Shown in pieces: positions 49,253-56,136 of a stretch of DNA of 64,000 bases. Below the pieces are notes generated by a model. That model had not been told where the DNA came from and ran no database searches. It saw nothing but the letters and a program-made list of their open reading frames with translations. This stretch comes from Clostridia bacterium (GTDB lineage: Bacteria; Bacillota; Clostridia; TANB77; CAG-508). Location: positions 343,898 to 407,897 of the forward strand of contig JAFXPH010000002.1 in assembly GCA_017528085.1 (NCBI GenBank). The letters are read 5' to 3'. How positions within the stretch are numbered: the first letter of the stretch is position 1; every line of letters begins with the position of its first letter. Position numbers and translations under genes: made by a program.

Positions 49253-50191
49253 TTAGCAATTTTCTAAATATTTTAACTGCTTTACAAGTTCATTGATTAG
49301 ATTAATTCCATAGTACACATCATCATAGTATTTTTGAACATATGGCTTAGTTAAAATTTTATCTGAAAGAGTTGATTCTAAGTACTCATGATTTGGTCTA
49401 AATTTCAAATATAGCTTGTTTCCTTCTATTACTAAACCAAAGTTTTTCCATTTTAATTCTACAAATGTTTGGAAAAGTTCTAGTATATCTGGTGTAAATA
49501 GTTTTACAGCTTCTATTTTATTTCTAGTTATTAAATCATAATACTTTTCAAAAAACATAGAATCCATTTCAACTCTTTTATTACTTAACTCACGAAATTT
49601 ACTATTTGGGACAACTTGAATTGAATTAAAACATTCAATAGGAAGAGTGGCTTCTATCATAACTCCATCAAAAACAGGTACCCTTCTTGTTGTCGTATGT
49701 CCTTCTGAATCACGTTCAGTTTCTATTCTATGAGTGTGAATTTCACCCATTAATATTTCTGTTTCATTCTCTAATTTTCCTCTTATTAAATCTTCAGAGA
49801 AGTACTCATCATATCTTTGGTAGAATGGACTTCTGTTAAAATTCATTACTGGGAATCTATCAAGTGGTAGGTATAAAAGATTTTTATCAACACAAAGAAT
49901 TACTTGATTAATAAGAGTATTTTTATACATTAATCTAAACTTTTTATCTCTCATAGTAGCAAATACTACTAGGATTATTGCAAATGCAAAAGCAACTCCC
50001 ACCATAAGTGGTCCCATTGCCATATTCTTTGTAATATCAATTGCCATTAATACTAATTCAATTATTAAGCAAGCGCAAATAATAATACTTATTCTCTTTT
50101 TCTTTCTTTCTTTTGCAAGTGATTTTTCTATAAGTATTTGATCTTTGCATTTTGCGATTATATTCATATATTCGTTATTAAAATCTTTCAT
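49253..50191 (-). CDS. membrane protein resembling the DUF3137 family
   Basis: Start set at MKDFNNEY, which has an RBS (AAAGGAA); the ORF-track start at 50257 would run through the upstream terminator. There are two TM helices and a C-terminal globular domain. Confidence 0.5.
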   Translation of the reverse strand: MKDFNNEYMNIIAKCKDQILIEKSLAKERKKKRISIIICACLIIELVLMAIDITKNMAMGPLMVGVAFAFAIILVVFATMRDKKFRLMYKNTLINQVILCVDKNLLYLPLDRFPVMNFNRSPFYQRYDEYFSEDLIRGKLENETEILMGEIHTHRIETERDSEGHTTTRRVPVFDGVMIEATLPIECFNSIQVVPNSKFRELSNKRVEMDSMFFEKYYDLITRNKIEAVKLFTPDILELFQTFVELKWKNFGLVIEGNKLYLKFRPNHEYLESTLSDKILTKPYVQKYYDDVYYGINLINELVKQLKYLENC

Positions 50192-50213
50192 ATTTTCATT
50201 CCTTTTAAAAATT

Positions 50214-50252
50214 TCAAACAAAAACAAAAGTCTTTCATTGATATGAAAGACT
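50214..50252 (-). terminator. rho-independent terminator of the 761-aa gene
   Basis: Perfect 10-bp stem AGTCTTTCAT tgat ATGAAAGACT, followed by TTTGTTTTTGTTTG on the minus strand. Confidence 0.6.
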
Positions 50253-50261
50253 TTCATTACT

Positions 50262-52680: not shown

Positions 52681-52701
52681 ATATATTTTTAAAAAATTTT
52701 T

Positions 52702-55113
52702 TTAACTATTTTGACCTGCTGCTAATTTTGAAAATTTATTTAATTTTTCTTGTACTAAATAATTAATTGTTCCAAGTGGGAATTTTCCATCTTTATTCTT
52801 CTTACCAGCAGGAACTCCTGTTAGTATTTCGATACCTTCATCGATTGTCTTAACAGCATAAATGTGGAAATTACCCTTCTTAACTTGTTCAATTATTTCA
52901 TCACTTAATGATAAGTTTCTAACATTTTGAACAGGAATAATACATCCTTGCTCACCATTAAATCCTTGCATCTTACATGTTTGATAGAAACCTTCAATCT
53001 TTTCATTTACACCACCAATTGGTTGAATCTCACCTTTTTGGTTAACAGATCCTGTTACTGCAATTGATTGATTAATTGGTATTCCTGATAAACTTGAAAG
53101 GATAGAATATAGCTCTGTACTAGAAGCACTATCACCATCGACTCCACCATATAATTGTTCAAAACAAATATTAGCTGTAAGTGAAAGTGGTGTTTCTTGT
53201 GCAAATTGTTCACCTAAGTAACCTGTTACTATCAAAACACCTTTTGAGTGTGATGAACCAGACATATCTATTTCTTTTTCAATGTTTACTATACCACTTC
53301 TTCCAACATAAGTACTTGCTGTAATTCTAGCTGGTTTTCCAAATGAATAATCTCCAATAGTAATTACTGTTAAACCATTGATTTGTCCTACAACATATCC
53401 TTTTGTTGAAATTAGAAGTGATTCTTCTTTAATCATTTCTAAGTATCTAGCATCGTATTTTTTAATTCTTTCGACTCTTTCTACTAATGATTTTTCTATA
53501 TAGTCAGCTGTAATAACTTTTGATTTTCCTTTTTTAGCCCATTGTGATGATTCAGTAATAATCTCACCAATTAAGCTAAATTGTGTTGATATTTTTCCTT
53601 TATCACCAGCAAGTTTTGAAGTATACTCAACTAGTTTTGCCATAGCTTTTTTATCAAGATCTAATAGGTTTTCTTGAACAACAAAACTCTTAGCAAACTT
53701 TGTAAGTTTTTCTATGTTAGCTTCATTTTTTGCTGCATCTTCTTCAAATTCAACTTTTACTTTAAATAGTTTTCTAAAGTCATCATCCATTGATAAAAGT
53801 GTATGATAGATATTTGAGCTACCTATTAAAATAACTTTTATCTTAAGTGGAATTGGCTCTGGTTTTAATGAAACTAGAGTCATACCCATTCTTTGTTCAG
53901 ATGAATTCTCTATTAATAATTCTTTTATTTTAAGAACTTTCTTTAAATTTTCATAACATACAGGATTTAATAATAAATCTTTTGCTTGAAGAATAATATA
54001 GCCTCCATTTGCTATGTGTAAAAGTCCTGGTTTAATCATTGTAAAATCAGTCTTTAGAGAACCATATTGATTTTCATATTCTAGACCACCAAATAAGTTA
54101 TTGTATGAATAGTTAGAATCCATAATAACTGGTAAGCCTTCTTGTTTACTATTATCAATGAATAAATTAATTCTATAATTTAGCCATGGTTCTTTTACTT
54201 CTGGCTTTTGAATTGTAGGTGGCATCATAGGTGCATTCTTATTGTCACTACCATCATCTGCCAAAAATTGACTAATATTTTTTAATATATCTTTCTTAAC
54301 ATTTTCTAGATAATCTAGAATCTTTTTATTTTTCTTGTAGTTAGCTTTAATTGAATTGATATGAACATTAATTGTCATTAATGCTACATTTGATTGCCAT
54401 TCATCAATTCTCTTTTCAGCTTCTTTTTCAATAGCTTTTATTTCTGCTAATGCTTGGAAGATTTGTTCTTGAACTAGATTTGATCTTTCTTCAAATTCTC
54501 TTTTTACTTGTTCATCTAATTCTTCAAATTCTTCTTCTGCTAATGTCTTTCCATCTAATACTGGCATCATATAAATACCATTAGATGTTGCTTGTACTTG
54601 GAAACCTTGAACCATTGTTCTCTTATTTAATTTTTCCATAAGAGCTTCTCTTTTTTTCTCATACTCGGACTTAATGATTTGTTTTTCTTTTTCGAAATCA
54701 TCATTATTAAAAGTTTTCTTAATATCTCTTCTAATGTCCTTTACAAAGCTCTCCATTGTATCTTTGAAAACTTTTCCTTGTCCAGCTGGAAATGATACAG
54801 CTATTGGCTCATTTGGATTTTCAAAATTATAAATATAACACCAATCATCTGGAACAACTTTTGATTTACTAGCTCTTTCTTCTAAGTAGTTCTTAGTGTA
54901 CATAGTTTTGCCAGTGCCTGATGGTCCTTCAATATATAAATTATAGCCAGCAAAATCAATATCAACACCAAATTCAAGTGCTTTTAATGCTCTCTCTTGG
55001 CCATAAATCAAATCTGAAGTATCTTCTACATCTTTAGTTGTTTCGAATTTAAAGATATTCTCATTGCAGATATCTTTTAAATCCTTTGGCATTAGTTCAT
55101 TTTTACTTCTCAT
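52702..55113 (-). CDS. Lon-related AAA+ ATP-dependent protease (LonC/Lon-like S16 family)
   Basis: Walker A is GPSGTGKT. The C-terminal S16 protease domain has the catalytic Ser in GDSAS and a downstream Lys (GGVNEKI). Confidence 0.8.
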   Translation of the reverse strand: MRSKNELMPKDLKDICNENIFKFETTKDVEDTSDLIYGQERALKALEFGVDIDFAGYNLYIEGPSGTGKTMYTKNYLEERASKSKVVPDDWCYIYNFENPNEPIAVSFPAGQGKVFKDTMESFVKDIRRDIKKTFNNDDFEKEKQIIKSEYEKKREALMEKLNKRTMVQGFQVQATSNGIYMMPVLDGKTLAEEEFEELDEQVKREFEERSNLVQEQIFQALAEIKAIEKEAEKRIDEWQSNVALMTINVHINSIKANYKKNKKILDYLENVKKDILKNISQFLADDGSDNKNAPMMPPTIQKPEVKEPWLNYRINLFIDNSKQEGLPVIMDSNYSYNNLFGGLEYENQYGSLKTDFTMIKPGLLHIANGGYIILQAKDLLLNPVCYENLKKVLKIKELLIENSSEQRMGMTLVSLKPEPIPLKIKVILIGSSNIYHTLLSMDDDFRKLFKVKVEFEEDAAKNEANIEKLTKFAKSFVVQENLLDLDKKAMAKLVEYTSKLAGDKGKISTQFSLIGEIITESSQWAKKGKSKVITADYIEKSLVERVERIKKYDARYLEMIKEESLLISTKGYVVGQINGLTVITIGDYSFGKPARITASTYVGRSGIVNIEKEIDMSGSSHSKGVLIVTGYLGEQFAQETPLSLTANICFEQLYGGVDGDSASSTELYSILSSLSGIPINQSIAVTGSVNQKGEIQPIGGVNEKIEGFYQTCKMQGFNGEQGCIIPVQNVRNLSLSDEIIEQVKKGNFHIYAVKTIDEGIEILTGVPAGKKNKDGKFPLGTINYLVQEKLNKFSKLAAGQNS

Positions 55114-55185
55114 TAGTAATTTTTCCTCCGTACATTTTCTAAAGAAATTTTATATTATAAAATAAAAAATTGCAATAACAAAAGT

Positions 55186-56136
55186 CTATTCTTTCTTACT
55201 CTTTTTGCTTTCTTTCTTTTTCTCTTCTTTAGGCTCTTCTTCAGCCTTTTCGCCATCATCTTCAAATATTTCGTCAAGCTCATCTATAGTCATCGGTTTT
55301 TTCTTTCTTTTTGCTCCTAAATACATTGGAAGCAATAATACATTACTTAATACTGAAGATATTAGTATTACAAATAACACATGTGTTAGTGAATAATCTG
55401 ATAAACAATCTGCAACTTTATCATAAATAAGTGCTGCAAGTGATCCTAAAACAAATGCACTAAGTGTAATTGTTGATGGATTTTTATTAAATACAGAACT
55501 AATTAATGTAGTTGTCATTGCAATTAGCACACATACTTCAAACACTGTAAGTGATGCTTTATCAGAATAGTTCCAATAAACATCAAATATTCTAGTTTGC
55601 ATTATAACTATAACAAAAATTAATGCTAAGAATAGAACCATTAATGTTACTGCATAACTTAAATGAACTTTTTCTGTATATTTTTCTTCTCCTGAAGTTT
55701 TCATGTATGAAGCAAATATTAAAAGTGCAACTGTCATAAATATACTTGAGAATATTAATGTTAATGATAAATATTCATAAGAAGCAACTTCTCCAAAAGC
55801 ATCATCATCATAGTAATAATCATCTGCATAATCGTCATAGTCAGAATCTTCATCATCGTAATAAAACTCTGAATCATCTTCTTCATCATCAACGAAGAAT
55901 CCACCTTCATAGTCTTCTTCATCGTGGTCTTCCTCATCTTCAATTTCATCTTCTTCATCTTCGACTACTTCTTCTGATATTAGTTTATTTTCTACCAAAA
56001 CATTTTCTGGAAGTACATTAACCATATTTCTTGGAATTGGTGGTTTAACTATTGTTCTTGCTTGAGACAAAGTAAATACTGAAACCAATGCAAATATAAT
56101 TAAAGTAAGTGATAATACTTTTTTTAAGTTTCTCAT
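55186..56136 (-). CDS. hypothetical membrane protein with an extracytoplasmic D/E/Y-rich acidic region
   Basis: Signal peptide, an acidic low-complexity stretch of about 80 aa, about five TM helices and a K/E-rich tail. Confidence 0.5.
   Translation of the reverse strand: MRNLKKVLSLTLIIFALVSVFTLSQARTIVKPPIPRNMVNVLPENVLVENKLISEEVVEDEEDEIEDEEDHDEEDYEGGFFVDDEEDDSEFYYDDEDSDYDDYADDYYYDDDAFGEVASYEYLSLTLIFSSIFMTVALLIFASYMKTSGEEKYTEKVHLSYAVTLMVLFLALIFVIVIMQTRIFDVYWNYSDKASLTVFEVCVLIAMTTTLISSVFNKNPSTITLSAFVLGSLAALIYDKVADCLSDYSLTHVLFVILISSVLSNVLLLPMYLGAKRKKKPMTIDELDEIFEDDGEKAEEEPKEEKKKESKKSKKE

Follow-up and report, generated by a model that had tools for sequence, protein, structure and literature searches.

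Genes between rimI and rpsB in an uncultured gut Clostridia bacterium: evidence for a mosaic of independent genes

In Bacillus subtilis, the ydiB-ydiC-ydiD-ydiE operon corresponds to tsaE-tsaB-rimI-tsaD. We analyzed a stretch of 64,000 nucleotides (referred to below as the window) from contig JAFXPH010000002.1 of a mesophilic gut Clostridia bacterium. The window carries tsaE, tsaB and rimI in the same order and orientation as B. subtilis; however, rimI is followed by a terminator and not by tsaD, and the next conserved neighbor in relatives is the gene of a LonC-like protease. Four genes are found between rimI and rpsB-tsf in the window. They encode an acidic membrane protein, a LonC-like protease of 803 amino acids (aa), a 761-aa protein with an N-terminal ADP-ribosyltransferase (ART) fold, and a DUF3137 protein. 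A previous inspection of the DNA, here called the sequence-only reading, had proposed that these genes might be a functional module, for example a toxin with a protease and a membrane or immunity partner, or else an accretion of accessory genes. Our results argue with good confidence that the region is a mosaic in which independent genes sit on a stable chromosomal backbone, and that it is neither one inserted block nor a toxin/protease/immunity module.

The protease resembles MtaLonC/TTC1975 (PDB 4fw9 and 4fwd), which lacks ATPase activity, breaks down unfolded substrates and also acts as a chaperone (PMC3391209, PMC13069640). For the 761-aa protein, the close known systems are the C3-like and binary-toxin ARTs (C3bot, iota Ia, CDTa, CPILE-a/BECa, VIP2 and Certhrax; PF03496, ADPrib_exo_Tox). 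Unlike them, it has neither a signal peptide nor a translocation partner; it is a cytoplasmic protein that starts with the ART domain and continues with a coiled coil and a conserved helical C-terminal domain. It also has no ExE or QxE motif, the catalytic triad is lost in about two-thirds of its family, and it is encoded by a single-copy chromosomal gene among housekeeping genes. We also compared it with the ART-immunity pairs Tre1-Tri1 (PDB 6drh) and Listeria Lmo0066 ART-ARH (PDB 8za7). In contrast to these pairs, the annotated neighbors included no adjacent gene for an ARH, a macro-domain or a small immunity protein, PAAR, LXG and Rhs delivery domains were absent, and the toxin-like domain was N-terminal instead of C-terminal. 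The copy-number or sequence polymorphism typical of polymorphic toxins was not seen either.

Gene order in the window and in related loci

From position 57,894 to position 47,152, the window contains minus-strand genes only. According to the open reading frame (ORF) listing, their order is tsaE-tsaB-rimI, the membrane protein gene (55186-56136), the LonC gene (52702-55113), the 761-aa gene (50262-52547), the DUF3137 gene (49253-50191) and rpsB-tsf. The sequence-only reading had listed the same four genes between rimI and rpsB; the ORFs lie where it placed them, and Pfam confirmed the LonC domains and DUF3137. An identical gene order was present in L007, a related locus whose 761-aa protein is 95% identical to that of the window. 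Since L007 was assembled independently, a mis-assembly could be ruled out.

To compare related loci (designated by L numbers), ORFs were called in all of them, clustered and labelled with the window's proteins. LonC came next after rimI in all 13 of the rimI-LonC loci examined, with the membrane protein gene between the two in L007, as in the window. The complete tsaE-tsaB-rimI trio was found 5' of LonC in L002, L007, L009, L012, L035, L039, L055, L062 and L063. In L047 and L064 to L066, tsaB-rimI was directly 5' of LonC, with tsaE undetected in L047, detached in L064 and L066, and not seen in L065. The position after rimI was without tsaD in the window and in all 13 of these loci, in agreement with the sequence-only reading. 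A search for TsaD-like sequences in the 64-kb window and the related loci gave no match, a negative that is weak because of its query, an Escherichia coli TsaD sequence. LonC is fixed directly downstream of tsaE-tsaB-rimI, a place usually taken by tsaD. In the window, the genes of this t6A/acetyltransferase operon, tsaE (57894-57448; Pfam TsaE, 2e-42), tsaB (57419-56688; Pfam TsaD family, 5e-28, consistent with a TsaD-family fold) and rimI (56679-56239; Pfam GNAT, 6e-17) are all on the minus strand.

The 761-aa family followed another pattern. A word search returned 39 clusters, and an exhaustive HMMER search returned 235 clusters at 50% identity. The gene was present once per genome in 53 species-level metagenome-assembled genomes, labelled as uncultured Clostridia, Clostridium sp., Lachnospiraceae or Candidatus Scatovivens. 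In about 33 loci, the gene order was c10-ftsE-ftsX-PcsB-like M23-M23-CtpB-[761]-c2, followed by the rpsJ operon, where [761] stands for the 761-aa homologue; these loci include L001, L004 to L006, L010, L011, L013, L014, L016 to L020 and L022 to L026. In eight species-level loci (L002, L007, L009, L012, L035, L039, L047 and L055), tsaE-tsaB-rimI-LonC was upstream of [761], with the reservation on tsaE in L047 made above. LonC and [761] were directly adjacent in L009, L012, L055, L007 and the window, while nadD-nadE separated them in L002 and a DapB-like dehydrogenase gene did so in L035, L039 and L047. In the remaining loci, [761] was next to trpS/obg, rimP/nusA, mreB or carAB, with mreB immediately upstream in L008. 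None of ftsEX, pcsB, ctpB, c2, nadD/E, trpS, obg, rimP, nusA and mreB was present in the window.

Conversely, in L062/L063 and L064 to L066, the genes that came after (tsaE)-tsaB-rimI-LonC were unrelated, among them thyX and a gene for a PHP-domain protein, and no 761-aa homologue was found within 10 kb of LonC in L062 to L066. One assembly showed both arrangements at once: rimI-LonC was on its contig 10 (L062, JAFWYK010000010), and the 761-aa homologue was on its contig 7 in the ftsEX context (L026, JAFWYK010000007). LonC and the 761-aa gene were unlinked in most genomes with both families. Because LonC came next after rimI in all related loci examined, and because 53 species-level genomes each have a single copy of the 761-aa gene, both are vertically inherited genes of this lineage of uncultured low-GC gut Clostridia. 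Of the arrangements seen, tsaE-tsaB-rimI-LonC is the stable unit, and the 761-aa gene is independent of it, standing beside LonC in one clade only.

Composition, transcription signals and the two genes of restricted distribution

If the four genes formed an inserted block, their composition could deviate from that of the core genes, as the sequence-only reading had suggested checking. The four genes had a GC content of 0.27 to 0.29 and a GC content at third codon positions (GC3) of 0.12 to 0.18. Their codon-usage distance to the flanking core genes was 0.08 to 0.11, compared with a spread of 0.06 to 0.15 among the core genes themselves. GC, GC3 and codon usage thus all fell inside the range of the core genes on either side. 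The four genes were not flanked by direct or inverted repeats; the only repeats in the region were the GAA-rich coding repeats of acidic linkers. In the tblastn searches run on phage and plasmid records, the three non-Lon proteins (761-aa, DUF3137 and membrane) had no relatives, and no integrase stood out in the ORF list of the four-gene region and its immediate flanks. A horizontally acquired block was rejected on the basis of the core-like composition, the lack of flanking repeats and the lack, in these searches, of phage or plasmid relatives of the three non-Lon proteins. PADLOC models, another check proposed earlier, gave noise-level matches only (Csx27, E = 0.0019; mad8, E = 6.6e-5, on the AAA region), and a defence system was rejected as well.

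The transcription signals also separated the genes. An intrinsic terminator ends the tsaE-tsaB-rimI unit (56219-56252, minus strand); its 15-bp stem overlaps the rimI stop codon, with -16.4 kcal/mol, z = -8.0 and a following U7. Another one, with a 14-bp stem and a U-run, lies 3' of LonC (52649-52680, minus strand; -16.1 kcal/mol, z = -4.65), and a 16-bp stem with a U-run lies 3' of the 761-aa gene (50223-50258, minus strand; -16.2 kcal/mol, z = -4.8). The terminators that the sequence-only reading had placed between the LonC, 761-aa and DUF3137 genes are thus real hairpins with U-runs, to which the one after rimI is added. The same hairpin analysis found no comparable terminator between the membrane protein gene and LonC, nor 3' of the DUF3137 gene. 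Because of the three terminators between genes, the four genes make up at least three transcription units, namely, the membrane protein gene perhaps together with LonC, the 761-aa gene, and the DUF3137 gene; they are not a single operon. Promoter-like hexamers were present 5' of the membrane protein gene, LonC and the 761-aa gene. They are weak evidence because the scan yielded fewer such sites than it did in shuffled sequence. Rfam gave three tRNAs only and no regulatory RNA in the four-gene region.

We then considered the two genes with a restricted distribution; the membrane protein and DUF3137 genes were present in the window and L007 only, while LonC and the 761-aa gene were conserved. 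The 316-aa orphan membrane protein (55186-56136, minus strand) has, by hydropathy and composition, an N-terminal signal/anchor hydrophobic segment, a stretch rich in D, E and Y (71% over residues 56 to 120), four or five transmembrane segments and a K/E-rich tail. It gave sub-threshold family matches only and no plasmid match, and its L007 counterpart is 82% identical. The DUF3137 protein has two N-terminal transmembrane helices (residues 31 to 57 and 56 to 82), and its C-terminal 130 residues match Pfam DUF3137 (PF11335) above the gathering score (E = 2.3e-13). The long ORF spans 49253 to 50257, and an alternative ATG at 50191 gives 312 aa. The gene very probably starts at 50191, not at 50257, because the first 22 codons of the long ORF coincide with the terminator hairpin of the upstream gene and the relatives have 311 to 312 aa. 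Only three related clusters (99, 88 and 29% identity) were found for it in 5.8 billion proteins, and among the loci examined, the gene was seen in L007 only, at 88% identity. Compared with Pfam DUF3137 at large, it is a very divergent member; the literature contained incidental mentions of DUF3137 only, with no described function.

The flanking genes of the window and L007 were much closer to each other: tsaE, tsaB, rimI, LonC, tsf and others were 97 to 99% identical (LonC, 99%), and rpsB was 92% identical. The insertion sites of the two genes differ. The membrane protein gene has the rimI terminator on one side and LonC on the other, and the DUF3137 gene is flanked by the 761-aa terminator and the rpsB promoter. 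Relatives have short intergenic spacers at these positions; in L002, for instance, 215 bp separate rpsB from the 761-aa homologue. The two genes are best described as two separate species-specific additions, each of about 1 kb and fast evolving. The alternative of an accretion of accessory genes, raised by the sequence-only reading, therefore comes nearer to these findings than the module, but an inserted accessory block does not apply to LonC and the 761-aa gene, which are conserved genes of the lineage.

Another explanation for the membrane protein is that it serves as a species-specific membrane adaptor or anchor for LonC, with which it would be co-transcribed. The gap between the two genes is 72 bp with no terminator found in it, one terminator is present 3' of LonC, and the arrangement is kept in L007. 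However, promoter-like hexamers precede LonC, the membrane protein gene is absent from all other rimI-LonC loci, and the membrane protein evolves much faster than LonC (82% versus 99% identity between the window and L007). We consider such an adaptor very unlikely.

In the proposed module, the Lon-like protease would control or process an ART toxin, and the DUF3137 protein and/or the acidic membrane protein would serve as an immunity or membrane partner. Lon proteases control many toxin-antitoxin systems, and this general knowledge speaks for the module. So do the adjacency and common orientation of the genes, and an ART fold that is real, is nearest to secreted clostridial toxins and keeps the R-S-E triad in the window copy. 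Nevertheless, co-occurrence of the genes was absent outside one species. LonC and the 761-aa gene were unlinked in L026/L062 and L064 to L066, and housekeeping genes were interposed in L002, L035, L039 and L047. Terminators separate the genes, and PADLOC found no match. Furthermore, 40 of 58 members no longer have the full triad although the family is single copy and full length, the ART domain is N-terminal in a protein with no signal peptide or transmembrane segment, and the annotated neighbors include no ARH or macro-type immunity gene. A module is highly improbable on this evidence. The sequence-only reading had named unlinked genes elsewhere as what would speak against it, and a comparison of the Lon-like, 761-aa and DUF3137 genes found just that: the first two are unlinked in most genomes, and the DUF3137 and membrane protein genes are confined to one species. 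Its module is therefore largely refuted by its own standard.

Several points weigh against a mosaic. In the window's clade (eight species-level loci), LonC and the 761-aa gene are neighbors or near neighbors, and on synteny alone, a clade-specific functional link between them is possible. The loci were inspected within ±10 kb and not as whole genomes, and the crude ORF-based gene calling and the BLAST thresholds could miss very divergent homologues of the DUF3137 and membrane proteins. The membrane protein gene and LonC may be co-transcribed, given their short gap and the terminator not found in it. Finally, the window 761-aa protein, with its full R-S-E, might be an active enzyme.

We still favor the mosaic, which has three components. 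First, the operon of the lineage is tsaE-tsaB-rimI without tsaD, and LonC is the next gene in the related loci. Second, the single-copy 761-aa gene, presumably transcribed alone, with a promoter-like site and flanking terminators, differs in position between clades, always among housekeeping genes. Third, the membrane protein and DUF3137 genes are separate additions, at two intergenic sites, in one species only. The main value of this result is negative: what looked like a toxin/protease/immunity island is ordinary chromosomal synteny plus two orphan genes, and the region should be dropped from the candidates for defence or toxin systems.

The LonC-like protease and the 761-aa protein

The 803-aa protein (52702-55113, minus strand) contains the Pfam domains LonC_helical, AAA_32, LonB_AAA-LID and Lon_C. 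The match to PF20437 (LonC_helical, a helical insertion in the AAA-like module) scored 61 bits against a cutoff of 24. The nearest solved structure was MtaLonC/TTC1975 (4fwd; E = 1e-79), which has the same domain set. The catalytic dyad, Ser662 in DGDSAS and Lys705 in GGVNEK, aligned with that of MtaLonC. LonC proteins carry a subfamily-specific insertion after the catalytic Lys with the consensus CX3GLX(G/E) (PMC3391209). The window protein has CKMQGFNG at residues 713 to 720, with F in place of the consensus Leu, and so shares with MtaLonC a Ser-Lys dyad followed by a CX3G(L/F)XG insertion. The Walker-B-like motif GGYIILQA is degenerate and without acidic residues; neither protein has the catalytic Glu there (GYIILQA in the window, GYLILDA in MtaLonC). 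In contrast, Walker A is intact and canonical in the window protein (GPSGTGKT), whereas MtaLonC has GPPSLGKH; nucleotide binding may therefore be better preserved in the window LonC. The two also differ in their hosts and settings, the window LonC being from a mesophilic gut bacterium and encoded at a fixed place downstream of tsaE-tsaB-rimI. The search returned 6,488 homologues below 1e-50, and relatives were 76 to 82% identical. By analogy with MtaLonC, the window LonC most likely works in general proteostasis, as a chambered protease/chaperone acting on unfolded proteins and probably without ATP hydrolysis.

The N-terminal domain of the 761-aa protein (residues 1 to 195; 51963-52547, minus strand) has a C3/iota-type ART fold, most similar to those of secreted clostridial toxins, so that the ART-like call of the sequence-only reading was correct. 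This relationship was detectable only by structure and weak Pfam matches; a profile search with the domain against PDB sequences found no ART match. On the window protein, Pfam ADPrib_exo_Tox reached 15.7 bits (cutoff, 23.4), at residues 195 to 248, outside the ART core. In one relative, P0037, it reached 25.8 bits over residues 5 to 181, above the cutoff, and weak matches were seen in 7 of 23 family members. The triad positions in the window protein are R89 (FYRGT, beta-1), S110 (FSVV, beta-2) and E156 (DEVIIVPFT). There is no Q or E two residues before E156 (H-D-E, and thus no ExE or QxE), and S-V-V is found instead of STS.

We then compared the triad across 58 full-length members. R-S-E was kept in 18 of them, the window included, and lost in the other 40. 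The Arg was replaced by K, Y or M in 13 members, the Ser by I, V, H, F, T or others in 34, and the Glu by T, D, A, C, F or V in 19; the P-F-T beside the triad Glu was invariant or nearly so. Because only 18 of 58 members keep R-S-E, ADP-ribosyl transfer appears not to be the conserved function of the family. Since the window copy keeps R89, S110 and E156, a residual NAD-dependent activity is possible for it, judging from these residues.

The ART domain is followed by a long antiparallel helical hairpin, a coiled coil, at residues 200 to 327 in the AlphaFold2 (AF2) model (51567-51950, minus strand); its helices at residues 200 to 250 and 266 to 327 had a predicted local distance difference test (pLDDT) score of >90. 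An acidic linker follows (residues 328 to 436; 51240-51566, minus strand), with about 44% D/E over residues 326 to 440 and 12-nt periodic GAA-rich repeats. It is poorly aligned and variable in length among homologues; it is of low complexity and probably disordered. Residues 437 to 761 (50262-51239, minus strand) are the most conserved part, with a mean column identity of 68%. Their predicted fold is all helical (pLDDT, 81) and matched generic helical bundles only, with no recognizable known fold. The whole protein has neither a transmembrane segment nor an N-terminal hydrophobic segment suggestive of a signal peptide. Because two-thirds of the members have lost at least one R-S-E residue, it is most likely the C-terminal domain that carries the conserved function, and the ART fold would be a head for binding or scaffolding.

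In the ftsEX context, the homologue is followed by c2, a protein of about 345 aa without a Pfam match, whose gene is 3' of it by about 30 bp in the loci checked (L001, L004, L005 and L006); an example of the pair is found at 10001-13212 of L001. By sequence inspection, c2 appears to have a single transmembrane segment, and its large C-terminal domain ends in a DVDNDG-like motif. The homologue and c2 are likely a conserved two-gene unit without a counterpart in the window's clade. Homology of c2 to the window's DUF3137 protein was considered and rejected (BLASTP E = 0.08; one transmembrane segment, not two).

This context bears on whether the 761-aa protein is an active endogenous ADP-ribosyltransferase regulating housekeeping, such as cell division or wall hydrolysis, whose gene was relocated beside LonC in the window's clade. 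The ftsE-ftsX-pcsB-M23-ctpB-761-c2 order is kept in about 33 species-level loci with the short 761-c2 gap in the loci checked, the L008 homologue has mreB directly upstream, 18 of 58 members (the window's among them) have an intact R-S-E, and P0037 exceeds the Pfam ART threshold. Yet the triad is eroded in most members, many of them in the ftsEX context itself (RIT, RVA, RSC and RSF), and no Q or E precedes E156 by two residues. Other neighborhoods consist of translation genes, and the adjacency to ribosomal and division operons may just mirror a highly expressed, stable chromosomal region. We regard an active endogenous enzyme as rather unlikely. A broader proposal, which we consider quite unlikely, is that the family is an undescribed lineage-wide housekeeping protein of Candidatus Scatovivens and relatives, with a domesticated C3-toxin-type ART head, which would work with FtsEX-PcsB-CtpB and c2; some members would be endogenous ADP-ribosyltransferases and most would be pseudo-enzymes.

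The 761-aa family is thus an uncharacterised ART-fold family that is core to the clade and mostly catalytically eroded. Its significance lies in the occurrence of a toxin-type ART fold as a conserved, single-copy, apparently cytoplasmic family across a clade of uncultured gut Clostridia. The decay of the triad in most species could reflect the domestication of a toxin fold or a conversion into a pseudo-enzyme.

A 'LYTYI..N..NINSYL' motif at residues 195 to 248 of the window protein, where the coiled coil starts (51800-51965, minus strand), resembles the N-terminal helix motif of C3-like ARTs, which also occurs at residues 8 to 30. This second motif could be what is left of an ART domain duplication like that of binary toxins.

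Flanking genes and other parts of the window

On the downstream side, rpsB (49103-48111) and tsf (48027-47152), both on the minus strand, are 86% and 75% identical, respectively, to those of L002, and the rpsB-tsf order in relatives is the same as in the window. RpsB in the window is 330 aa long, with a C-terminal tail of about 100 residues (48114-48428, minus strand) rich in E, A, V and K, an unusual extension for a core ribosomal protein. The length of RpsB varies even between close strains, being 259 aa in L002 and 317 aa in L007.

On the upstream side, a tRNA-Gly(UCC) gene (58123-58196, plus strand) is located just upstream of tsaE and is followed by a segment of higher GC content (0.34 to 0.42) within 58200-61000. 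This segment contains a 112-aa ORF without a Pfam match, a NUDIX gene and a 326-aa ORF (59696-60676) with a lipoprotein-like N terminus and no Pfam match. The tRNA-Gly/NUDIX arrangement is also present in L007 and could be an old integration beside the tRNA. In L064 to L066 (about 4760-6770), two reverse-strand genes, encoding a DUF7694 protein and a 186-aa protein, split tsaE from tsaB-rimI-LonC, and in L065, two large serine recombinase genes and a PemK toxin gene are found just upstream. The neighborhood does take insertions, at sites other than those of the window.

Elsewhere in the window, two very large genes are located upstream of carAB (31639-41789, minus strand). One encodes a 2269-aa cell surface protein with three SLH domains and an fn3 match, and the other encodes a 1091-aa protein without a Pfam match. 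Finally, the GC content rises to 0.36 to 0.40 at 25013-27077, over the gene of a 590-aa ABC/SMC-like ATPase (25013-26785, minus strand) beside a tRNA-Asn gene (27002-27077, minus strand). No other part of the window deviates more in composition, except the segment near 60 kb.

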